DNA of 55,582 bases, filler included, from Sphacelaria rigidula (taxonomy: Eukaryota): the NCBI GenBank assembly GCA_964200075.2. It is 5 parts of 5 records of this genome, joined end to end, with 100 filler letters (N's around TTAATTAATTAA, not from the genome) between each part and the next. Parts side by side here need not be neighbours in the genome. Positions count along the whole stretch, not along the records: positions 1 to 11,037 come from CAXNAA020005495.1; 4 more parts are not named here. One strand, written 5' to 3'. A model generated the notes under the pieces. It saw only the letters and a list, made by a program, of their open reading frames with translations. It was not told the DNA's origin and made no database searches. The translations under genes and the position numbers were made by a program. Numbering within the stretch: position 1 is the first letter of the stretch; each line of letters begins with the position of its first letter. This document shows, piece after piece, positions 453 to 48,800 of this stretch.

Positions 453-3400
453 TCACGCTGCCCACGCTTCCAGCAAACGGTCCATGTGCCTCAGTAGCTT
501 CCGGCGCACCGGCATAGACCGTCGGTACAACTCCAACTGTCCAGCTTGGTACTCTTTGCGTCCTTCCTCTGTCTCAACGCGCACAGGACTCGGATCCCAA
601 GACGCGCTAGGCAGCCCCCCCACTTTCCCCCCGCCCCTGCCGTCGTAGGCGGACTTGCCGTAGGCCGAGAGATCATAGGGTGATGCCCGCATGTCCTGTT
701 CAGGAGGCGAGATGGAGGAAGAAATGTCATCTATGAACAATGTCTGCACAAACAACTGAACAACCAGCACTGAAAAAAAGCTTCAGTTTGGAAATGGGTC
801 TCAACCCCAACGCAGCGTTTTCTCCAATCAGAAAACTTATATTTCCCGATGATATTTTTTGTTGGCCTAATACCCCTCATTTATTTCGTCAAATTATTCT
901 TTATAATTTTTATTTGTCGCACTTTGAACCCCTCCCCTTCCTCGGGACGAGTCCATGGTCTCAATGGATCAGCCCATCTCTCCCCGGTACACGCCTGTGC
1001 TCCGTCTCGAAAGGGATGCGTGGTCAATGGTCAAATGACTAAGGCAAGCAACAAATGAGTACGCCCCCCCCCCGGTACACGCCTTGCACTTTGGTCTCGC
1101 GGGTTGGGTCAGCACTCCCCCACCCCATCAACTCACGCCAAACAAACTCAGCCAAATAGTTCGTTTACTCCCGTTCTCGCGCTTTCTGCGGTGGAAGTCA
1201 GACACAACGAATAAAAACGCAACGCATCGGGAATCGAACCCGCGTTCTCTCCACCCTAGTGACGACTGTCGGACCACCTCAACCACGTGGAAATCATTTT
1301 CAGCGCCTTTTACCGACTCTGTAAGCCCACAGCGCTGGATGAAAGAGTCATTTCGCCCTGATGTTGGGGTGATGAATTAAACGGTCTTCGCTCAGCGCTG
1401 TGGGCTTACCGAGTCGCTGAAAGGTGCAAAAACAATGTCCACGCGATCGAAGGGTATCAGGTCGACAAGCAACTCATTGGGCATAGATGTTTGTAGTATA
1501 GAGAAAACACTGTGTTGGGGTTGAGACTCGTTTCAAGACGTGAACTTCTTCTGCAGTTCCGACAGATACTGGCCGGCAGCGATACTGTATATCTCAGTTA
1601 CGGGGTCACCTGTGGTTTGTCAATCAATGTCTGCTTCAAGGCAGTAGTCTACATACAACTTTGTTGTTCCAAAGTTCGGCAATAGACTCCTAAGCGTCAC
1701 GAGTGTCCAGCAACGTAACTAGTCTCTCATCACACTACATAAGGCCAGTACAGGCTGGTTTGCGCTTTCGATCCAAACTTCACCCATCCGCAAATGTCCA
1801 TGCCGGTTCTTGGAGTCAGGCCGTTTCTTACTCTTGTCTTCGCGGGGGGAGCGTATTCTCCTCTTTTGGAACATTTGATATGGTTTTCGGGTCTCGATCG
1901 GGGGATATCACCCATCACTTGTCTTGGACACTTCTGCGTCACCCCACCGATAATAGTCTAGCCCACTTTTCCGATTAGCTTGGCTCTGAGGGTGTCGAGA
2001 ATGGCCCCTGAACAAAAACACAGCTGTACAAAAAATTACCGTGTCTGCAAGTGTTTTCAAGGTAATTCCTGTTTGGGAGCTACAAACCGCGTTCAAATGT
2101 CCCACGAGTGAAAATTACGCTCCCAAAAAACACGAGCTGTAAAAAACGATCCAAGACTCTGAAAATTTGCACACGTACATTATGCGACAATTCGCAACTT
2201 GAAAGGAACAGCCTTTTTTTTCCCCTTCGCTGGTTATTGAGGGTCCCAGGATACTGGGGAATAACATGCCCTTCTTCGTCCGCCGGAACTCGGCGAAAAA
2301 AATCGAAAAATCCGATTCCTTGAAAGTTTCGAAATGTCTTCTAGTATGCGTGTGCAAATTTTCAATTTTTTAGAGTCTTCATCCGAGAATCAGTGTTAAC
2401 ATTTGAACCTTTGTGCGATAAAGTGGGCTTGAAAGGTACAAATTCCTCTCTACTCCGTTGTACTATTGAAAATGTTATTTCCGGGTACGTTCAACGTTGA
2501 AACGACCCCATTTTGCTTCTTTTTTTCACAAGTTAGTCAACGGCACTTCGTACTACTGTACGTGATGTTCAATGGACTACCCCGGGAGTAAAATTGACTA
2601 TCGTTACTTCTAGGCATTCCCAAGATTCTTCACGCGAATACCCCCAGAAGCCGGTAAAGGGCGGAGAAAATTCGAAGGATCTTGCAATGATTTTTCTTCT
2701 CGTTGAAGCGTCAATACCCACCGAGCTGCCAAGTTTGAGGGCGGTCGGAGCTCCCCTACGACAGGTATGAGAAAAATCGTCGGAAGCCTTTCTGGACCTT
2801 TGGTGCATATCACAATTAGGAATCCGACGACGCCAAATCCCCACATCACCAAAATTACATGGTTTGGGGTATCATTCGATCCCATGGGACCCGTTCTCAA
2901 CTTTATTTTCTTCAATTAGGTTCCCGAGCTGATGACGGTTACTGCAGTGTAAAGTATGTGGAGATTAGGTAGACGTCAAGCGGGCATGTTAAATTTCAGA
3001 ACAATTTCAAGGCCTCTAATTGGTCTCGGTACCTTTTCGCCTTTCGTTCGCCGTCAGCGCCACCGCTATGGCCTTGAACAAAAATCCGGCTATGTCACTC
3101 TCTTCAGTTATCCATGGCGATCGGTGTGATGCCATGCATGCAAGAATCAGGTGGGTGTCGCGGAAGGAACTTACTGATTCATGAATTCGGGGTCGACGGC
3201 GTGAAGCAGCCTGGAACAAGCATATTTCATCATATGGTCCCCAGGAAAGAACTCCTTCTATTTTTGTAACTCAAGCTCAGTTTGGGTGCTACGTCTCGTC
3301 TGACTGGTGGCAGCGCTCCTGTCCGTCAAAACCCCTCACAATAGTAGTGCACATAACCATTTCTCCACAATCCAGGAACATATCTAGCAACACGAGAGTT

Positions 3401-11137: not shown

Positions 11138-11594
11138 CATTACACAAGAACCTCTTACATATCTTATCCCCGTCCTGTTTCGCCGTCTCTGGCCACCATC
11201 TATCTTCTAAGGCGGGGGAGGGGGGGAAGATTTTAAACAGCTGCGCCACCCCATGACTACTAAAAACGTTTGGGATCTTCCACGACAGAAGAGTGTTTAC
11301 ACGCGAATAAGCAAGCCCAAGCACACATGGATTACACGTACGACGCAAGATTGGCATCCTTTGCACCGCACAAAAATTGGCTGTGAGGCAAATTTATACG
11401 TTTGATTTGCGCTGTACAAAACCACTGTACGGGTGAAAAGCGGCACGCGTGACTCTTGCCGTGCAAACCACGTGAGGGCATAGGGTACGATTAATCACAG
11501 ACGGGAAATGCGCCCGTTTGGCTCGTGACACGCAAATAATAACAATAGCAAAACGCGAGCATAAAGCGTGCGGTACGAATCCTAGATGAAAGTA

Positions 11595-11780: not shown

Positions 11781-13379
11781 AATGACCGTACTTCGCCCCT
11801 TCCTCAGGATAGAGAAAGTATCGGAATAGCCAGCGCAACTTCCAACGCAATCGCAATGCGACGCCCCAATGGTATCTCGCCGCCCTTGGGGGTACGTCCA
11901 TCGTTCGTGTTGTCTGTGGGATGAGCTTTGGGCGGTAAACACAAATGCTGATGAAAATTTTCATAACAATTTCAAAAAAATGTACCAAAATGAGTATATT
12001 TTGACGTCATTATTAGTATTGATAACTACCCATTTTTCTCCTCATCGGCGTTGTTTGCGCTTTATCTCTTCAGCAAACCCAACCTGAGGATGGTCGTCAA
12101 CGCTGGAATACCGAAACGATTAAACGCCCCTAAGTTCCCAGGCTTACCGGACAGGGGAAGTGTGACGTGTACGGTTCGTCCGGGACGGATCATGGACGGA
12201 AAACAGCAGAAACGACGAAATAGATTTTCGATCCAGGTAGAAATCCTACATGCAAATGTGACGACGGCATCAATATGATCGACTGATTTTGCTCTGTTTA
12301 CACGGCAGCGGGAGAAACGTCGTGTTGGACCACTTCATTTTTGCTCGTTGATAACAGTGCCTGCTGTTTTTTTAACACATCGGACGGACCAGCTCACGGT
12401 TCGTCCGCATGAATCACTAGGACGAATCGACCACGCCATTCGTATGGAAATTGTTAGGTATATGCTCGTCATTATCACGTAAATAACGGGAATAGATCAT
12501 GGGTACACAGGTCTCGTCAGTCGTTCGTGCCGCACGAGTCAGGCGAGCAATCTTCTCCACGGCCACATGTACAACACGGATCATACACGCATTTCGCCAG
12601 ACGTGATTCGTATCGCAAGCATTGCGCACGTTTCCTCACCAGCAGTCTTTTCGTACAACACAAGTGAAACGTACATGTTGCAAAACCTGCACAGCTTATG
12701 CTGTCCACTCGTTTGTATCAATTGCTTACAATTCCTCAGCTGAGGGTTGCACTCGATGTTGAATCTTTCCCCGTTTCCCTTTTGGCAAAGCAACCAAGAA
12801 GTAGGCAATGTGTGGACTCCATGACTTGTGTCATAAATTGACTCGAAGGTTTGTCCGCAAAACATGTCCATGTATCGGAGTATATCTTTTTGTGGGCTTC
12901 ATGGTGTTTCCACAGCTGCAGTTCCGCCGCAATTCGACCCAGGCATGGATGGTTTATAGCTCCCATTTCGTCGCCAACGCTACGAGATTTCGGCGTCACA
13001 ACTGCTGCCGCCGTCTCTACTACCAAGGTCAAGGCTTCACCCCCGACCTGTATCCAGTCGGGGTGACAACCATAACCATTCCACACAGAAAGTGGTCCAG
13101 GAATGATAATATCTTCACGTTCAAACATGAAGGCCATCCCGTACTCGCGTCAGACCTCCCCCTCCCCTCCCCTGGACAGTGAGAGGTTGTGATATTTCTC
13201 CGGCACGCGACCGTGAGAAAGGACGTTTTGGCTTTCGGCGATCGCTCTGTCGAGAACAAGGTTCAATCTCTCGACCACGCGGCATACCAAATCTCAGCGC
13301 TACGCGTGCACGACGCAAGTGCCACTCAACCACCCCCACTTCCACCCAGCGTACAAGTCATTGTACCGATATCGCTCAC

Positions 13380-16300
13380 CGACTCTGCATCCGCAGTCGC
13401 CTCAATCTTCACGTTCCCGCCCTCGATGTCCCACAGTCGCCATTCTAAACCGCCGAGTGACATCGTTGAGCCCGACGGATAGTCAGCGCTGACAGCAGGT
13501 CCTTTGGCACTTTTCTGCGCTCCTGCTGCGTGCGGGTGTTCGTCGCTGGAAGCGATCAAGTCGTTCCAGTAGTTCCGTGACAATATCATCTCCCCCGCTG
13601 TACCGTCGTCCATAGAGGACGCTAAGTCCTGCAGCACGTCAACGATGCATTGTTCGATTGGTTGATTGCTTGCTTGCTTGCTTGCTTGAATGGTTGATTG
13701 AATGGTTGATTGGTCCATTGAATGGTTGGTTGATCGAATGGTTGATTGATTGGTTGGTTGATTGGTTGATTGGTTGATTGACCGGTTGGTTGGTTGATTG
13801 AATGGTTGGTTGATCGAATGGCTGATTGATTGATTGGTTGATTAATTGATCGAATGGCTGATTGATTAATTGATTGATTGAATGGCTGATTGGTTGAACT
13901 GTTGAATGTTTGTTTGAATGGTTGATTGATATAATAGTTGATTGATTGAATGGTTGATTGATATAATAGTTGATTGATTGAATGGTTGATTGACTTATTG
14001 ACTACATTAACGGATCCCCTCGCGGGATTTCAGCCGTGTTCACGAGACTACATGCCACGCGTGAAAGAGAACGGCAAGGTATTGTCTATGATTGTCCCAT
14101 TCACGTTACTAACGGCATTCTACACGCGTTACTATTCATCATGTATTCGAAAAATGGCTATCATACCCACGTGCCCGTGATTTTCCCGGCCGGTTAACTC
14201 GCTTTTTAGTTGGAGAAATTCTATTTTACACGAAAGTGAATAGTTCGTCATAGCTTCATTCATTGTCGCCCCGTCCTTCTACCTCATCACTGCACTAGGT
14301 GTCCGTGCTGTGCTTGTCGATGCTGCAGGCATTCTCGCAGGGCTCTTTGGTTTGGAGTAACCCTTTGCATTGCCGACATGGTCATCCTACGACAATTACG
14401 CTCTGAGTGCTGTGAGTGAGCACCTCAGACTAATGCCTTGAGAAATGGTAACTTATCGTGTGTCCTGGGATCCCCTTTGATTTGGGATTTTCTATCCATG
14501 TGCATATCTGCTCAATGATTTACTCGTTTGCACAAGCGATCTGGGATTTTTTTTCGCACAATGCTTAACAGTGGAGAGCGACTATGTCGTGAGTACACAA
14601 AAGTTGACTCATTACGGTCGACGAGGAAAAGGGAGTGCTGAACCCCTCTCGCGATTAAAAACAAAGGCAAGGACGCAGAAGGAAGGTGGAGAACTAGAAA
14701 AAGAAAGCTGCTGTCTTGGCCTTCCTCCTGGGTGACCCCGGTTGGTGCGCTCACATATCCCGAAAGGTGCAGCCCGGCGTCCACAATAGATGGGGCGACA
14801 ACGCACACACAACAACGGACAACCTCGGCATGTGTAGTCCCTCGTTTGCAACGAGGTATGGCAAATTACCGAAAGAGAACAAACGCACTCTTCAGTTCGT
14901 CATGCATGCTGTCCTCTCACAACTGAAGATGGTACTAGCGTGGTCTGCAACCCTTGCTGACTCCAAGCGGAGGAGAGTGAAGGTGATCCCCTTGACCTTC
15001 TGGTGACAGATTCTTCCGTACGTTTGTCAGAAAGTACAATCTACACCCATCCTTGCCCAACGCACTCCTGATAATTTGTAGCCAGCACGCCCCCTCCCCC
15101 CCCCGAACGCATCCACAGGCGACAGGTGACAGGCCTTTCCTGACCATTGAGCACTGAGCGTAAACAAGCAGTGATGGTAGACAACAAGCTGGTGTGACAG
15201 GCGTTCTACAGCATATTTTCTGGAATCACCGTAATCTAGACGGATACTTCCACCAGAAAGTGCAAGCTGTTCTGCAGACAGCCGTTTCCCTTTGGCCCAG
15301 CTTTTTCCGCCCCAGGGATTTTGTCGGGTGGCCCGACGCTGTATGGGGCTCACCGAAAATGGCGCCCCCGCCGCGACATATTGCCAGCCCTCGTATGGTC
15401 CTCCCACCGTGTACAGCTCCAGGTTGCCAACGCCGAGCGCGATGTGCAAATGCAACACATGACCCTGCAAGGACAAATACACAGTACTTGCAGGTCAAGT
15501 CGCGGATCGGTTTGTGCCGAGCGGGCACACCGGCAGATTGTCTCTACGTTGGTTAGTGACAAAAACATCCTCATTAAAAGGAGAACAATTGAACAAAGTT
15601 TTCTTTTTCTCTTCCTTTTTTAATTCAATATATATATATTCTTTTCTTTTTCTTTATGTACGTCTCAGTGTACTATGTCGTTCTGTTCTGCTTATCCTGT
15701 TTTTTTATTTTTCTTCAGCGAGTGTTTCAGTTGTTGTTTTGCCTTGGGTACGTCTATCATGTGACCACGACTGGATCATGACTACCTGGGGGGTCAGTTA
15801 AAGTGCAACAGCCAATCAAATCAATCAAAGAGACGGTGAGCGGGTCAATACGTCTTGAAACACACGGTGAATTTTCTGAACATGAAAAAAAAACATTTTT
15901 CTCTTCCCCCTCTGTACCGTCCTTTTGCGAATAAGCAGTCTTGAACACCCTGACTTTTGACGCCGAAGTCTGTGTTTTTCCCTCCTGGGTGTGCCTTTCG
16001 GAACAGCGCTGCGCAGCATGTTTTTCCTCAACGCTACTATCACGACATAATATGCACTCAATCTCCATAAATAAGATTACTCTGCCCTCACGTGTCCTGG
16101 TTCGACGCCCGACCGTTCTACCGCATCATGTTGCTCACCTGCGCAGCTCGGATGTACCAGGTTTCGTATCCGAGAACGCGGTTGGCTCGAGACAACAGAG
16201 CAGTGCTACGGTAGGGGTTGCGCTTTTTCTTACCGAAAACGTATTTCTCGGGGGCTGCTTGGGGTGTTGGACGGATCATTTTGAGAATCGGCGCCAATTT

Positions 16301-21148: not shown

Positions 21149-21765
21149 CTTTTGTGGGCAAAAAGGTACGAAGCGAGTGTAAGTGGATGGATGGCAGGAT
21201 AGGGCGAGAGATGGAGGGATCTAGAGACGTTGCATACATAAACCAGTAAGCGCCAGATACGTCATAACTACACATTCTCTGCAAAATCGGGCATGTGGCC
21301 ACTTGCTTGTAGGGTAGCTGAGGTAGTTCTACTTCCATCAGATGTCCCCTTGTATTGGCGGTGTTGAGTCCTGAGGTGTGCACATACCTCCATTTCCCAG
21401 CTAGTACAACGTTGTTCCTACGTTTGTGTGCTTCATAGGTACTAGAGTCACGGATACGAGGAGTACGACCAACCGTGCACCACGGGAAATCGGTAAACAT
21501 GTTAGGGCCCGGGAATGGTCGTATAGACCGACGCGGCGATACGTTCTATCGTCGGCTGTAGTCTCGCCCGTAAGCATCAATACCCGCAAATTGACAAATA
21601 CACGACGATCCAGTCCACGCCTGATCAATCATCAGTTCCTCGAGAGATATTATTTGACCCGACGGTCGTTGATACAGGGTGTCCGCTTCGCTCTATATTC
21701 GGTAACATGATACAATTCCTTCCGATATGGATCATTCCCGATTCCGAGTACCCCGGAGGGCAGCG

Positions 21766-22061
21766 GACACTTTCTACGATAGCCCTTCCCCCAAACGAAA
21801 CCAGCCTGTCAATGGTTAAAAGGCCAAGGCGAGCAACAAATGGGTACACCCCCCAAACCAGCCCAAACCCGTCTCGAAAAAATGGCCATATAGCACCTGA
21901 TGTTCGGTTTCAGGCCGCATGAAGTCCCTCATGTGGTCGACATTTGCGAAAATGAACCCAAGCGTTGGAATTCCCAGCTGCTCGTTGTGCCCGTCTTTTT
22001 TCAATTCGATTTGCGTGTAGATTTTGCATCCCCAAACCAGCCACTTTAGGTGTGTGTGTGT

Positions 22062-22092
<31 letters not shown>

Positions 22093-22274: not shown

Positions 22275-22461
22275 TGCATCCCGCTAAGATTATTCGGCCC
22301 GAGGCCTACTGATTATCCTACATTTGGATGATAACCTACAATGATTTGCTTTGTTCTGCGGTATCGCCACTTCCAGAGACAGCCACGGCTTTTACACTGC
22401 CTCATGGGTGTCTAACCAGAATGCAAGATAATCAGTAGGCTTCGGCTGGTTGTGTGTGTGT

Positions 22462-22534
22462 GGGGGGGCGTACTCATTTGTTGCTTGCCTTAGTCATTTG
22501 ACCATTGACCACGCATCCCTTTCGAGACGGAGCA
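22462..22534 (-). mobile_element. Poly(C)-tailed short retroposon copy
   Basis: Reverse complement essentially identical to 998-1069; lies between two G runs and abuts a lone MITE TIR (ggggctatcgtaaaaagtgtc, 22537-22561). Confidence 0.8.
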
Positions 22535-23290
22535 AAGGGGGGGGCTATCGTAAAAAGTGTCGCCTGTGCAGTCAGTCGTGATGAACAGCGTTGACTTTCA
22601 GCTGCCTCCCGTTGCCCACGAGGTGACGCCTCCGCCATGACCACTACGCCATTTTCCAAACAAAGAGCATGAGACGAAGGTCCATGGCAAGGCTCTCTCA
22701 TAAAAAAACAGCAGTTCTCCCCGGCCTCCTGGGTACATGTCTAGCTTTACGGAAAGCAAATCGATTTCTTTAGTGCTATGTGTATGAACAGGAAAATGGA
22801 TGGGATGTAGGGTACACCGCTTCACGCAGGCTCTGGTTTGGCAGAAACGCACACACTAAATGGACTTGAAGAATGGCTGGCGTACCGAAATCTTGTGTGA
22901 GCTCACTGAATGAGTGAAAAAAATTACGCTTCCTTTTTGAGTCAATCGTCTATCATCTTCACGACTTCTCACGAGGAGCTACCGCAGGGTACATTTTTTT
23001 TCATCAGGTCCCTTATCGGCTCAAATGAGCGCTACGGAAGTTTTGTCTCCATCGTTGGTAGGGCATGAATTCGCCAGAGAATGAGATAAGGTACAGCAAA
23101 TGAATGCCCTGTAAAACGTGGCGGACGGCATGCCTGAGGATAACGCGTAGGTCAGGTTTTGTCGGCCATATCGATGAATTGGTGATATTTTGAAAGGTCA
23201 AGAGAACACCGTTCAGTTAACGTCCGTGGGATGCTTGGTTCTGCGATCGCCTTGTTGATTCGCCGCCGGGCAGACGACAGTAATCCAAAG

Positions 23291-27900: not shown

Positions 27901-30900
27901 CCTTCCGTTGGCTCAAATCCCGACCCGGAAGACTGCTACGGCATCTGCAGGTGCGTAGATGCTCAGTATCGGTGCCAATGACCAAATGTCGTTGTTGCCT
28001 CATCCTTAGGTTCGTCAAGCGTAGAGGCTAGTTTACCGGCGTTGGGCTATAAATGTCCATGGTTGACACAATTTTACAAGTATCGCTACCCCTACCCCTA
28101 AAACCCCGACCAAACGCGATCCGAGGACCCTCGGGCAAGGGCGGTACATAGTATTCCGTAGGCAACGTGCGGCCTTGGTCGACCTCAAATCGGCGCCTGC
28201 GGCCCCGATTTCAACAAGAACGCGTCCTGCGCACGCGAGGAGCACACGGGACTGTCAGCCCTCAGGCGCAGGGTCCTTTGTTGTTGTTGTTGTTGTTGTT
28301 GTTGTCTTCACATTAAAAACCGTTCCGATATCTGCGCGGTACATTCGTACTGGGCATCTGATGCGGACGCCTTCCGTGGTCACAGGCTAGCTACCTCTAA
28401 CAAGGTATGAGAAAAAAAAAAGACCTAGAGTATACCTAACAAAACGCGATACAAGCAAAACAGGGATACCTAATAAAGAAGAGTTCTTTGGTATACCAAA
28501 ATGTGTGAAAGTGTGCCGTTAAGCGATGCCATCTGACTTGGGCATCGCGTGCGTCGCAGTAGATCAGCATCGTTTGCGTGGCCATGACATTGCGTCACAA
28601 GTGTTCACTGTCCGCAATTTTCGCTGCCGTTCGTTGTACTTTTTTTTCCGTCTGTGGTTTGGGGCCGGGGCGTCCAATGCTTAGTCATGTACAATTTCAC
28701 CAGGAGAACATGTATTATATGTGTATAGCTATGCGTGTTGTGTGCGCAGTTTGAATTACGTCTGCCCGACACCTACAAATGGTTTTACGTGTCGGTACCA
28801 ACAACAATGGCTTCAAGGATGTTGTCGCCGCCGACCTACTATATCATTCGGATATAATCGCCGTACGCCGCATAATGCTACACAATGGATGTCATTGGGT
28901 CTGATGGTTCGATTCCCGGCAGCTGTATTCAGTGTTGTTCACGAGTATCTGATTTCCGCTATTGAAAATACGAGGGCGTGAGTAGAAAAATGAATTTATT
29001 TGGCGACTTTCGACGCATATGCGGGGTCGCTGATCCAAATCCGCGATACTAGATTGTAAGGCGTGTACTGCTGGGGGAGGTATATATATATACATATATA
29101 TCCATATTTATATATATCACCCTGGGCAATATATGGTCAATAGATTCAATAGACCAAAAATGCACCGGATTATCTATAGATCTACTGCATCTATTGACGA
29201 TCGACAATAGTTGCAATAATAGGGCTATACTTAACCCGGTACAATTCTTGAGCCGCCGCGCCCCGATGGTGTAATGGCCCGACTGTCGCCATCAGGGTGA
29301 AGAGAGCTAGGGTTCGACTGCCGATGCGTTGAGTTTTTTCTTCGTAAATTCTGATTTCCACCGTGGAAGGCGTGAGAACGTGAGTAAACAAAGTCGTCGA
29401 CTGAGTTGGTTTGGCGTGAGTTGACGCGGTGCGGGAGTGCTGATAGTCATGACCCAATCCGCTAGACCAAAATACAAGACGTGTACCTGAGGACAGACGG
29501 GTCGATCCCTTGAGACCACGGACTCAGCCCAAGGAAGGGGAGGGGTTCAAAGTGCGACTAAAAAAAAAGAAGTTCTGGTCCATTGCATGTATTGACCATG
29601 TACTGTCCAGGGTGTGATATACTATAATACGTGGGAGGACCGCGTGCTTTGAGGACCGCGCTGTGGCTTGAAACACCTCACGATCGACGTTTTCCAAAAC
29701 CAGTTGGGCTATTGCCTGGAGGGACCACGCCCCTAACCCTAACCCCAACCCTAACCCCAACCCTAACCCTAACCCTAACCATAGGGATGTTCAAACTCCG
29801 ATCCGGTCCTCTAAGCGCGCGGTCCTCTCATGCATTACAATACTTCCTCTTGGCCATAAGTGAAGCCCGTTATGATTACACGGACTCTTAACCGTGTCCG
29901 ATGCCGCAGCTGATAATATTTTTGAATTCTTCGGTGTTTTTCGAGTTGAATGCCATATTTGTTTTCGGTACACACCACCCTGCATGCACTAACGGCCGAA
30001 TGAAACAATCGGCCTAAAAAAGGCCGTATTTAGCTCCTTTTCCAGGGGCTAAAAAGTGTCGAAAAAAAGAAACCTTCCGCAGCGCAGCGGCCTTTGTTAG
30101 GGTAAGAAGTGACGGCCGCCCACTACGAGTCTTGTTTGAGAGGTCGAGCTCCCCGGTTTCGTCGATCTGAGCTTTGCACTCAGACCGATCTTTTCTAGGG
30201 TAGCACGACCAACACCAAAACGCTCCATGGGGCTTAGAACGCCCTTTAGCACCCTTATTTTGCCTGGCGGAATGGCCAACGCTATCCCTACCACCATGGC
30301 ATCACGTTTGCCCAACGATAGCTCGGCGCCCCGTTTACGTCTCCGGGGGGTGTTCATCGTGGTCGCGGGGGGGTGGTGGGCGTTCAAACGTCGATGATAA
30401 CCTCAATTCTCAAAATATTCTCGAAAATATTCTCAAAATGATAACAAAACGGCCAAAATTCCCAGTTTCTGACCCACTACTGCTCAGTTAGTACGACACG
30501 TTTTCTTTTTTAATGAGCATGGCCACATCTATAGCCTTTCAACAAACTTGACTATAGCATGGTCGGCAACTCGGTTGGCGAGATAAGATCTGACGCCCAT
30601 AACCGACTTTACTTATGGCACAAAGGAAGCATATACATATACTTCCTCTGTGCCATAAGTAAAGGTACCTAAATTTGTACGGGCCCTTAACGATGTCCAA
30701 TCTCTTTATTTTTTATTCATGAACTCTACGGTGTTTCTTGGGTTAAGAAAATGTGTTTAAAATTTGCAGCTCGTGCTTGAACCATGCCGCCGAACGGCTG
30801 CAAAAAAAGTAGTCGGCTCCAAAATGGCCTCTTTTTGCCCCTTTCCGGGGGGAAAAAATTGTCGGACAAAATATTTTTGAATCGTTTTCATCGCCCCCGC

Positions 30901-31650
30901 CTTCACTGGAGCTTGCTGCCAGGACGTCCCACGCGATTAAAAAAAATAACGACACGTTTTTTCCTCTCGGAAAGAGGCAAAAAACGGCCATTTTTGGGCC
31001 GACTACTTTTTTTGTAGCCGTTCGGCGGCATGGTTCAAGCACGAGCTGCAAATTTTAAACACATTTTCTTGATCCATAAAACACCGTAGAGTTCATGAAA
31101 AAAATCGGACATCGTTAAGGGTCCGTACAAATTCAGGCACCTTTACTTATGGGACAGAGGAAGTATAGATTGATCGATCCCTTGAGACCATGAACTCGTC
31201 CTGAGGAAGGGGAGATGTCGGAGGTGTGCCATAAATGCACGCTTTATCACACACACGTGCCCACATACAAATCACGCCGCAAAAAGCCCTCGCGAGAGAG
31301 AAGTGCAGCATCACAACATGAGGTCGTGATCGTACTTTAGGTGTTATTTTTCATTTTTCACACAGCGTGGGTGCCTACGTTCTCGCTTTTGCACTTACCA
31401 CGATGAGGAGTGCACAAGGATCGGCTACATTCGGAGCTGGCTACGGCTGCCAGCCTACCACTTTTAGATGCTCATGTATACTGGCGTTGACTGCTTCTTC
31501 CACTGTCGACATATACCTATCTTGTAGGAGTGCCAGGAGAGAGAGGAGAAGCTGTGGTGGGAGCAATGGCGGGAACGTCGACAGGGCGCAGCCTCTCGGC
31601 TACAAGCTGTTTTCAGGGGAGAACGAGTGCGAAGGATGCTCCGTGCAGAG
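23291..31650 (+). CDS. Partial gene: multi-IQ-motif (calmodulin-binding) protein
   Basis: Six phase-compatible GT-AG exons: 23291-23383, 23848-24027, 25214-25337, 26670-26767, 27812-27950, 31528-31650. IQ-type motifs IQRVVRGHLAR, FQVAWRGFQGR, LQRVWYRR, VQRWWRKH, LQAVFRGERVR. Confidence 0.8.
24852..25000. repeat. (GCAA)n microsatellite grading into (CCAA/TCAA)n
   Basis: Direct reading. Confidence 0.9.
25346..25602. mobile_element. MITE, GAGTCATGCTACGATAG TIR family
   Basis: TIR gactcatgctacgataggg / ccctatcgtagcatgactc; TSD GTTG/GCTG; starts at intron position +9 after the exon ending at 25337. Confidence 0.8.
29116..29616. mobile_element. Foldback element (family of 47430-47602) with a SINE inserted in its right arm
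   Basis: caccctgggcaatatatggtcaata...caatagacca / tggtccattgcatgtattgaccatgtactgtccagggtg; palindromic centre ctattgacgatcgacaatag. Confidence 0.7.
29260..29570 (+). mobile_element. tRNA-derived SINE, family A, full length
   Basis: Head gccccgatggtgtaatgg (A box), ggttcgactgcc (B-box-like), body shared with 905-1290, tail gtgcgact(A)n; a 3' fragment also at ~31170-31232. Confidence 0.75.
29622..29840. mobile_element. TA-flanked MITE carrying internal telomeric (CCCTAA)n repeats
   Basis: TIR taatacgtgggaggaccgcgtgctttgaggaccg / cggtcctctaagcgcgcggtcctctcatgcatta; CCCTAA/CCCCAA array at ~29731-29780. Confidence 0.65.
29843..30629. mobile_element. Stowaway-like (Tc1/mariner) non-autonomous element
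   Basis: TA|cttcctcttggccataagtgaag ... ctttacttatggcacaaaggaag|CA. Confidence 0.6.
30642..31163. mobile_element. Stowaway-like long-palindrome MITE
   Basis: TA|cttcctctgtgccataagtaaagg ... cctttacttatgggacagaggaag|TA; arms of ~220 bp are near-complementary. Confidence 0.85.
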
Positions 31651-33056: not shown

Positions 33057-33311
33057 GGCACTTTCAACGATAGCCCCCCACCCCCCAAAACCAGCCCAAA
33101 GTGTCACGAAAAAAATAGTCCTATAGCGCCTGATGTTTGGGTTCGGGCTGCATAAAGCGCCTCATATGGGCGACATTGGCGAGAACGAACCCAAGCGTGG
33201 GAATTCTCAGCTTTCGATTTATGTGAAAATTTTGCCTCCCAAAACCAGGCACGTTTTTTTTTGGGGGGGGGGGGTACTCATATGTTGCTCGCCTTAGTCG
33301 TTCGACCATTG
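33057..33311. mobile_element. GACACTTTCTACGATAG-family MITE with a poly(C)-tailed retroposon (33263-33311, minus) in its right G-run
   Basis: Colinear with 47125-47381 up to the G run, then gtactcatatgttgctcgccttagtcgttcgaccattg to the contig end. Confidence 0.7.
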
Positions 33312-44594: not shown

Positions 44595-44685
44595 GGGGGG
44601 GGGGGGGGGTGGGGTTTTGGGTACTCATTTGTTGCTTGCCTGAGTCGTTTGACCATCGACCACGCATCCCTCTCGAGACGGAGCA
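44548..44685 (-). mobile_element. Poly(C)-tailed short retroposon with a long tail running to the contig end
   Basis: More than 60 nt of G-rich run followed by gtactcatttgttgcttgcctgagtcgtttgaccatcgaccacgcatccctctcgagacggagca. Confidence 0.8.
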
Positions 44686-45883: not shown

Positions 45884-48800
45884 CTTGATGCTCATCTGCC
45901 AAGCGTTCCCGAAGGTGGCGTGGATGAGCGATACGGCTGTCGCCCAGCACGTCTGCGCCAGTAGCGGCTGCTTGATTCTGTGGAGAATGACACTCGTCGG
46001 TAGTGTCCGCACGTTATGCAACCATGCTGCAGAAGAATACCGCTCGGCTGCACAGGCGACATGCAACATGCGGGAACGATGGGGGGCGATAGGGGAGCGA
46101 CAGGGGGGGGGGGGAAGGGGGTGCACTCATTCGTTGCTTGCCTTAATCGTTTCACCATCGACCACGCGTCCCTTTCGAGACGGAGCACCGTTCCTACTCC
46201 TAATTGAGACACCTTCAACATTCCGGCGCTCATTACATTTCTTCCATACATGACACAAAAACATTTTTACATATCTTATCCCCGCCCTGTTATGCCGTCT
46301 GTGGCGACCATCTATCTCCTAGCATTGCCATCGTTTTCTCCCTACTGTCTAATGCATCAAACGATTCCGTGCCATCTTCGTTCACGTCCCTCATTTCCCC
46401 CTCGAGCACGTCCTGTTCCTCCTTGCATAGTCCACATTCTGCCATTATCTGACTTCTGCTCTTTGTTGCTTTGCCACAGGGGCAAGTCTGTGCATTTACT
46501 TCCTCCTCCTCTCGATTACTCGTGGGCGATGGGGGGAGGGGCTTTTTATCCACTCACGTTTACTCTATGAAGAATAAAGAAGACAAACAAAAGCATCTTG
46601 CGAGGTGCAGCAGGGGTGACTGTGCTACCCCCATTTTGTCCCCAATACTACAGGGGATGCCCACCGTGGGTGCTGTATGGAGCCATATTACTTAGAGGTG
46701 GATGCCAACGACCAGGTTTAATTGACTTGCGTTTGTGTACAACCCCCCAGGATACTACCACAAGATCCCGTTGATTTTTTACCGACAAAATCTCGACTGT
46801 AAACTTCGAAGCAACGGAGTTTTTGGAGATGTTGCTTCTGCCGGCGCTTGAGGATGAGATGTAGGCTGGCTATTCGGATCGCCCGCCCGAGATGGCTGAC
46901 GTATACTTCGATAAATCTACGGAGACCGCGCGTTGGGTTTGATGAGGAAAGGGTTAGGGCAGGATTGGCGGCTGGGGTCGGGGACGGAGTCCGTCGATGT
47001 TGGAGCGGGCAAGAAGGGTGGGGGGGATCACATGGCCATAAAGAATTATACTCCAGTTTTTTTCGGCTGTCTTCAACCGTAGTTGGGTGTATGCCGCCCA
47101 TGTATGATACATGCGAGTAGCGTCGACACTTTCTACGATGGCCTCCCCCCCAAACCAGCCCAAAAGTTTCAAAAGAAAAATGGACACACAGCGCCTGATG
47201 TTTGGGTTCAGGCTGGATGAAGCACCTGATATGGGCGACATTGGCGAGAACGAACCCAAGCGTGGGAATTCCCAGCTGCTCGTTGTGCTTGGCTTTTCCC
47301 ATTTCGATTGACGTTAAGATTTCTCCTCCCAAAACCAGGCACTTTTGGGGAGGAGGGGGGGGGGCTATCGTAGAGAGGGTCCTTCTCAGGGTGAACATAT
47401 CTTCCCGTCGGGGGATGCTGTCAAAATTGCACACCTTGGACAATACATGGTCAAAAGATGCAATAGACAAGAAACGTACTGTATGAGGTATAGGCCTATT
47501 GCGACTATTGCCGGCCGAAAATAGTCGCAATAGGCCTATACCTCATACAGTACGTTTTTTTCTGTCTATTGCAACTATTGACCATATTTTGTCCAAAGTG
47601 TGGAAACTGTCTGAACTCCAAAGCGCGTCGCGATCGCGTCGGTCGAATCGTAGATTCAAACAGGCAAAAACGCAAATAGCATCGAATCCCAGATCCGGTT
47701 TTGTCCACAGCGAATATTGCACCAAGGCGAAGGCACCAAGTACGTGTTGTTTTTCGATATTTCGGCAGCGAGTGCGTGTTGTTTTGTTCAGTGTTGTAAA
47801 CGGCGGCACAGCGGTAATTCCCAATCCATCAGGCAGTGCGTACAAAGTACAGTGCCAGCATTTCTCCGTCCAGTATAGTACTACACTGTTATACTACGCA
47901 AGTGTTATCTCTGCTGAATATCGATGATGACCAACAATCCCGACGCCATCCCGCCTGCTCAAGCCTCCACGTGTCGAAAATGCAATACGCACTGTATCAG
48001 GGGAACTCCGACCCCGATCCACAGACCATAAATGTGACTAAAATTTTATATAATTCATAATAATATAATTAATTAATTGATTGATTGATTAAAGATTAAT
48101 TGAGGATGGATGGTTGGACGGTTGGATGGATTTTTATTTTTGGACAAGGGAAGGACAATCAGGACAATATAATGGGACAAAATTGTAGTTTCCCCCGCCC
48201 AAAGAAGACAGACATGCATAGTGCTCTGTTCACCAAATGACACACTGGACAACGGATGAGATTTTCATCACTGCGTAAAGTATGGAATCTATTGTTCATT
48301 GCATGAGACGAAGTAGTCAATACCGTACGCAGTACACTTTTCGACGACGTAATCTACCGTCGTTATCCAGGATGTGCACCAAATATCCCGCTTATGGTGA
48401 CGTGCTACTATTTACAAGCAAAAAAGAGTTACGTGTGTGTGTATTGTCATCCCATCTATCTTACACTCTAGTCTAATATATCTTATCTTCCGGCATATTC
48501 AGGCGCATCAAGGCGGGGTCACCGTGGTCACACAGGAGGAAACGCAGTTTTTCTTTTCATTATGTTCACGTCTGTTTCGTTCTTGTCCCCCACCTTCCTT
48601 GCGCGGTGTTTGCCTCCGTTTGTTATGGCGAGAAGGATTCAGCGGTCCATTATCCTCGTTGCCCGTTGAATTGATTTGTTGGCTTCCCATGACATAGTCG
48701 CTCTTCAACTTCTGTTGGGCATAGTGTGAGAAAAATCCCAGATCGTGCGACTTACCCAAGATTCGAACCAACGTTCCAACCAGCACTATATCGGTATTCC

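Follow-up and report, generated by a model that had tools for sequence, protein, structure and literature searches.

In L1 and Alu retroposition, the tail nucleotide (A) is also the nucleotide with which the target site duplication (TSD) starts, and the A tail is added enzymatically. Retroposons with a C in this role are known among the RTE-X LINEs, a group treated as a clade, with no further defining features given, in the sections of PMC5753468 and PMC10294476 used here. The closest described elements come from Ectocarpus sp. 7, for which the sections of a curated library used here (PMC12477816) list RTEX-1_Ec32 as 'single EN-RT ORF; (C)n 3'' with a C-rich TSD and RTEX-2_Ec32 as having '(C)n termini/TSD', while RTEX-1b is present as 3,007 copies totaling 1,059,065 bp against a 5,511-bp consensus. 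Two nonautonomous elements, RTEX-N1_Ec32 (607 bp) and RTEX-N2_Ec32 (188 bp), carry the last 60 to 100 bp of the LINE (the last 60 bp in RTEX-N1) and have C-rich TSDs. The RTE elements of Ectocarpus end in (CAA)n, and its CRE elements end in (CA)n and have the RT-EN order (PMC12477816).

The repeat analyzed here was detected in a window of 55,582 nucleotides, consisting of five contigs joined by N spacers, of which the first is C5495 of a 244-Mb, 27,214-contig eukaryotic assembly. The original prediction was of a C-tailed retroposon of ∼70 nt that formed a separate SINE-like element, was mobilized by an unidentified LINE and belonged to an undescribed type. TSDs starting with C and a C/G-run target were confirmed, but a separate element was not supported, as the sequence is the end of a LINE ORF2; the mobilizing LINE is abundant in the genome, and the 65-mer is its own ORF2 end. 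Nor is C-tailed retroposition undescribed: the Ectocarpus library, published in 2025 (PMC12477816, sections used here), contains RTE-X LINEs that have (C)n ends and C-rich TSDs, and C-for-A retroposition is therefore real but not new. The repeat is probably the extreme 3′ end of a C-tailed RTE-X-type LINE, with the copies of ∼65 nt arising by repeated, independent 5′ truncations at a hotspot. The original prediction had taken the commonest truncation product of this LINE for a separate, undescribed SINE.

The LINE, which we describe as being of autonomous type (one ORF with an APE endonuclease, an RT and a CCHC knuckle), exhibited a single APE-RT ORF, a (C)n terminus and a C-rich variable-length TSD. 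Given the (CAA)n and (CA)n termini of Ectocarpus RTE and CRE elements in the library sections used, these features place it with RTE-X, a label resting on features and precedent and not on a tree. Like RTEX-1_Ec32 and RTEX-2_Ec32, as partially described, it has a single EN-RT ORF, a (C)n 3′ end, C-rich TSDs and thousands of mostly truncated copies. It differs from them in residing in another genome and in its RT, for which the closest named relatives of the L163 copy were unnamed Ectocarpus proteins and the best full-coverage match was 61% identical. The comparison was with descriptions, and the sections used mention neither a hotspot at 59 to 71 nt nor an ORF extending to 5 nt before the tail. 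A noncoding partner of ∼500 nt with the same 3′ module, family B, is a direct parallel to RTEX-N1_Ec32 and RTEX-N2_Ec32; those elements have their own 5′ heads, whereas the 65-mer has none and is purely LINE coding sequence. Stringent LINE/SINE pairs (RTE with TTG repeats, UnaL2 and SART1) similarly have a common 3′ end with a predicted stem-loop recognition signal, and their terminal repeat is implicated in template slippage (PMC3747384, sections used here). In contrast to these pairs, this LINE has a homopolymeric C tail, and its signal is located over the last 20 codons rather than in the 3′UTR. The match between the tail nucleotide and the start of the TSD resembles L1/Alu poly(A) priming (PMC3747384, in part), but the clade is different and the C run is presumably read from the DNA of the master itself.

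BLAST of the window with positions 982 to 1084 as the query detected six copies with 85 to 99% identity, at the predicted places on four of the five contigs. All six had a C run at the 3′ end, those of copies 4 and 5 being near or at contig ends. The relevant features are as follows.

907 to 1276, plus strand: host interspersed repeat split by copy 1, with an uninserted paralogue at 29275 to 29567 on the minus strand (self-BLAST)
982 to 996, plus strand: left TSD of copy 1, 15 bp, first four bases C (window comparison)
997 to 1063, plus strand: copy 1 element, the last 66 to 67 nt of the LINE, predicted to fold alone as a closed three-helix module
999 to 1058, plus strand: last 19 codons of ORF2 and TGA (1056 to 1058), leaving a 3′UTR of only 1059 to 1063 (from 19/19 identity to the C terminus of protein P0001)
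1064 to 1069, plus strand: C tail of copy 1, six C past the duplicated target
1070 to 1084, plus strand: right TSD of copy 1
11138 to 11209, minus strand: ORF2 fragment of the LINE (amino acids 1297 to 1320), truncated by the contig start ahead of the 65-mer and additional to the six predicted copies
21808 to 21854, plus strand: copy 2, ∼40 nt, 5′ truncated, within a MITE-like repeat at its C-run end
22275 to 22413, minus strand: piece of family B
22462 to 22534, minus strand: copy 3, 65-mer and C run, in a C run of the same type of MITE-like terminal repeat as copy 2, with a TSD that is only C rich
33263 to 33311, minus strand: copy 4, located in the terminal C run of a MITE-like repeat, with the 5′ side lost at a contig end
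44548 to 44685, minus strand: copy 5, 65-mer at 44621 to 44685 with a long C run truncated at the contig start
46103 to 46523, minus strand: copy 6, 5′-truncated LINE of ∼420 nt, ORF2 amino acids 1230 to 1359 (CCHC-knuckle region to stop) and C run

Copy 1 has the predicted 15-bp TSD beginning with four C. Four C precede the element and ten follow it, four of the ten belonging to the TSD; G997 is either base −1 of the LINE or a chance match. The paralogue of the host repeat, proposed as an empty site, does indeed have no insertion, but its sequence has diverged at the site; cleaner empty sites of this repeat were found at loci L064 and L022. Sequence runs of organism A contained the host repeat in abundance, and neither of the two further organisms compared had it. 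Its segment at 1225 to 1260 resembles a tRNA B box by eye, ARAGORN gave no hits, and a palindrome (1286 to 1443) adjoins the repeat. Copy 2 is flanked by a 9-bp duplication (21798 to 21806 and 21855 to 21863). The MITE-like repeat (∼230 to 330 bp, TIRs with a C/G run) occurs at ∼21765 to 22090, 22535 to 22560, 33059 to 33274 and 47127 to 47358 and often serves as a target for the LINE, both in copies 2 to 4 and at several loci elsewhere in the genome. Other repeats in the window include a degraded LTR retrotransposon (33412 to ∼40000, minus strand) with RT, RNase H and integrase in Gypsy order by Pfam, long palindromic (foldback) repeats at 30638 to 31167 and 47427 to 47605 (self-BLAST), and a long degenerate microsatellite (13326 to 14029, minus strand) of short A/C/T-rich units with low-complexity ORFs.

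Genome-wide searches detected 2,446 exact matches to the 5′ 26-mer and 4,150 to the 3′ 20-mer, with none for the reversed controls, giving a minimum of 4,150 genomic copies for the family. A minority of the first-sampled copies continued 5′ into common sequence identifiable as LINE ORF2, with an RT core, a CCHC knuckle and a stop codon inside the 65-mer. Translation of positions 999 to 1055 matched the last 19 residues of P0001, an intact 1,360-amino-acid endonuclease/RT protein, at every residue. Judged by its sequence, the 65-mer is coding, comprising the last ∼20 codons of the LINE, the stop codon, a 5-nt 3′UTR and the C run. RT-encoding LINEs with the same 3′ end were present: locus L156 matched P0001 from residue 1 to residue 1360, with frameshifts, and had the 65-mer as its 3′ end, and the 65-mer and C run were found in 7 of the 11 loci obtained by an ORF2 protein search (L142 to L152). 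Near-full-length broken LINE copies in the genome finish with the 65-mer. Pfam detected Exo_endo_phos and RVT_1 in P0001, with the endonuclease N terminal to the RT, and RVT_1 in L163, L153 and L150, but no match in the C-terminal pieces of ORF2. A 305-amino-acid RT stretch of L163 matched Pfam RVT_1 and L1/R2 proteins in the PDB, and its best relatives were intact single-ORF EN-RT proteins of 1,360 amino acids (73% identical) and 1,328 amino acids (68%). The C termini of P0001, P0002, P0003, P0004 and P0006 carry an identical or similar peptide across the RNA module, indicating that the overlap between the ORF end and the 3′ signal is conserved across these relatives. An intact young master was not seen: of 13,415 candidates, 34 were scored, and every long match among them had stops or frameshifts. 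This absence must be treated with caution as young repeats collapse in this assembly.

These findings also bear on other classes of element. A SINE with a small-RNA head (tRNA, 5S or 7SL) was rejected, as neither ARAGORN nor Rfam gave a hit and the whole body is the LINE ORF2 end. Penelope-like elements and Chlamys have a GIY-YIG endonuclease and a hammerhead-bearing pLTR; here, the upstream sequence is an APE-RT ORF2 and no ribozyme match was found in Rfam, a result that also leaves a ribozyme as the maker of the 5′ end unsupported. An Ectocarpus CRE or RTE does not fit, as the endonuclease precedes the RT and the tail is C. A fragment of a known TIR DNA transposon was considered and dismissed because of the one-sided tail, the TSDs of 8 to 20 nt and the 5′ truncation; copies 2 to 4 sit inside the MITE-like repeat and are not part of it.

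Insertion was examined using the first 100 listed matches to the 3′ motif, of which 13 near contig ends were left out and 87 were analyzed. Among the 74 copies with both flanks usable, an exact TSD (8 to 20 nt with at least two non-C bases) was detected in 24, compared to a mean of 2.5 and a maximum of 6 in 30 shuffles with mismatched flanks. The first base was C in 22 of these 24 TSDs, as had been predicted. TSDs are therefore of variable length and far more frequent than in the control, although exact ones of at least 8 nt were confined to these 24 of 74 copies; many of the others had C-rich duplications too degenerate to be counted by the exact test. A CCCC was present within 30 nt upstream in 54 of the 74 copies, compared to 9% of 5,452 background windows, and copies were nested in C runs of the MITE-like repeat (copies 2 to 4), of family B and of other copies.

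It is highly improbable that the C runs are simply a pre-existing target or the product of later slippage, with an RNA lacking a C tail and an element that merely prefers C/G runs. C runs are common and unstable in this genome, and a comparison of 22 of 50 short copies, those having a TSD with a non-C core, found that the downstream run exceeded the upstream run in 11 copies, equaled it in 3 and fell short of it in 8, so that half exhibited no gain. Against this explanation, CCCC was found no more than 12 nt downstream in 66 of the 74 copies, and clean cases (copy 1, L113, L102, L037 and L068) gained 3 to 11 C, with increases from upstream to downstream of 4 to 10 in copy 1 and of 3 to 14, 3 to 11 and 3 to 7 elsewhere. 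The C run is therefore not always pre-existing flank, the clean cases adding C past the target, even if the 11 copies with no longer downstream run show no such gain. The uneven gain fits priming within a G run with slippage, and later slippage may also contribute. LINE-type target-primed insertion at C/G runs is supported, as are the C-starting variable TSDs and, in the clean cases, the addition of C. The steps of target-primed reverse transcription are established, and by analogy the LINE protein would bind the last ∼66 nt of its own RNA and nick a C/G run on its G-rich strand, pairing between the RNA's C run and the nicked G run would prime cDNA synthesis, and a second nick 8 to 20 bp away would generate the TSD.

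The 5′ ends were mapped in 74 of the 87 copies, 13 being dropped (9 at contig ends or N gaps and 4 with internal duplications or indels). Eleven copies ended at 27 to 58 nt, 48 of the other 63 ended at 59 to 71 nt and 15 were longer, up to >800 nt. The stop rate per base was 0.4% at 27 to 58 nt, 9.4% at 59 to 71 nt and 0.4 to 0.9% beyond, and thus 10 to 20 times higher in the 59- to 71-nt zone than elsewhere. In the worst case, with the 13 dropped copies and the 13 left-out places all taken as long, 48 of 89 (54%) would still stop in this zone. The mode was 65 to 66 nt, with a sharp upper edge. A fixed 5′ start common to all copies was therefore not observed, and copy 6, supposed to start at TGCTCC, runs on to ∼46523 as ORF2; a SINE with its own fixed 5′ end was rejected on the basis of this staggered peak inside a continuum. 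The continuum from 27 to >800 nt favors truncation, while the sharp upper edge resembles run-off from a short RNA and weighs against it. In the literature searched, which lay outside Repbase, Dfam and subscription papers, no description of a comparable hotspot was found. Two sequence runs from other organisms, X5 (organism B) and X11 (organism D), matched only 997 to 1073 of the compared stretch; their loose ends were LINE type at 997 and C run at 998 to 1000, indicating that short copies of the same length also exist in other organisms.

Fold predictions suggested a basis for this hotspot. In the 66-mer alone, the first six bases pair with the last six around two hairpins, with a predicted probability for this closing helix of 0.95 to 0.99, as opposed to 0.00 in the LINE context, where the first six bases are instead predicted to pair with the six bases just upstream (−6.4 kcal/mol; probability, 0.89 to 0.94). 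Over the final 130 nt of the LINE (family A) RNA, the predicted opening cost is highest, at 5.5 kcal/mol, 57 to 61 nt from the end, and family B has no such peak. Homology between family B and the LINE begins exactly at the first base of the module, and the family B majority sequence predicts the same helices, differing mainly in loops or by one compatible change. Family B has no LINE-type hairpin, and none of its 21 copies reaching the module base stopped there. The position of the stop zone on the hairpin, with family B as a natural control, suggests that the hotspot is tied to the hairpin. We propose that a longer LINE RNA would be repeatedly and independently 5′ truncated 59 to 66 nt from its end at this LINE-specific hairpin, through either stalling of the RT or cutting or trimming of the RNA. 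The mode lies ∼6 nt beyond the stall point expected at the hairpin base, which weighs against a simple stall and leaves a precut RNA as plausible as a stall. Support for the fold consists of two family majorities predicting the same helices: single-sequence z-scores were unremarkable (−1.5 to +1.2), and RNAalifold detected no pairs in 38 family A and B copies, for which the MAFFT alignment was misaligned in the 5′ part, making this outcome neutral for the fold. No G-quadruplex was predicted upstream. Family B copies (22275 to 22413, minus strand; L170, L171, L154, L186 and L025) end in the 3′ module and a C run. Several begin ∼290 to 316 nt from the end, perhaps at a truncation hotspot of their own, although the aligner under-extends some of them. 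ARAGORN detected no tRNA head in 10 family B copies.

The sharp upper edge at 65 to 66 nt could also be explained if, the LINE origin notwithstanding, many short copies derived from a discrete RNA of ∼66 nt, released from any transcript by cutting or trimming at the hairpin. Transcripts running through short copies would be included, so that short copies would beget short copies as a promoterless mini-SINE, and loss of the six upstream bases would flip the predicted fold to the closed module that family B also forms. We regard this as unlikely. In its favor are the edge itself, the predicted switch of the closing helix, the start of family A/B homology exactly at the module base, and the existence of 617 near-identical copies with T at position 39, for which an intact master was not seen. 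On the other side, short and long copies alike include both position-39 variants, no base is diagnostic of the short ones, T39 is the state in intact ORFs, and short copies have no transduced upstream flank in common (0 to 9 extra nt). Furthermore, the upstream half of the hairpin, itself a prediction, is absent from short loci, and another way of setting the 5′ end would be needed there. A short master specific to T39 was first suggested by genome-wide pattern counts, in which long copies numbered 47 per 617 for T39 and 292 per 1,186 for C39. In 21 of 30 young long loci, however, the element was interrupted by a contig end or a gap, making this contrast unreliable and similarly biasing the lower divergence of short than of long copies seen in one comparison. 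The 3′-anchored sample exhibited the hotspot in both variants (T, 14/18; C, 34/45), further weakening the T39 master; the assembly also hides young long copies from any test for a short master.

A truncated or deleted nonautonomous master of ∼150 to 300 nt, RTEX-N like, might instead have produced the young copies, with the hotspot unchanged. This is quite improbable. The young LINE lineage concerned (L203 to L232; 54 exact motif matches) is marked by a tandem duplication of 21 nt, in frame and ∼120 nt from the 3′ end, and has smaller 5′-end pile-ups near 82 to 90 and 115 to 122 nt. Its 30 loci have at most ∼240 nt of LINE sequence in common, no intact ORF was seen among the scored matches, and such partners exist in Ectocarpus (PMC12477816, sections used here). 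However, the duplication preserves the frame, the lineage continues 5′ as ordinary ORF2, there was no sign of a foreign 5′ head, and long repeats that are young are collapsed in this assembly of 27,214 contigs. The near-identical young T39 copies among 30 loci ended at or below 122 nt, a point against independent truncation of LINE RNA. Independent truncation of the LINE at the hotspot is thus the preferred explanation for the short copies.

For annotation, such copies risk being miscalled as a separate SINE, and they also seed and lengthen C homopolymers. The sharp hotspot makes the setting of LINE 5′ ends testable, as RT stalling versus precut RNA. There is a small chance that the 66-nt LINE end is itself a promoterless, self-propagating mini-retroposon, in which hairpin processing frees the module, which then adopts the fold that the LINE protein would also recognize in family B; if so, it would be a headless SINE of just 66 nt, built entirely from coding sequence, and would delimit the smallest cis signal used by an RTE-X LINE. 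The 66-nt module, delimited by thousands of natural truncations, common to a noncoding partner and nearly unchanged in other organisms, is a candidate for the minimal RTE-X RNA signal.
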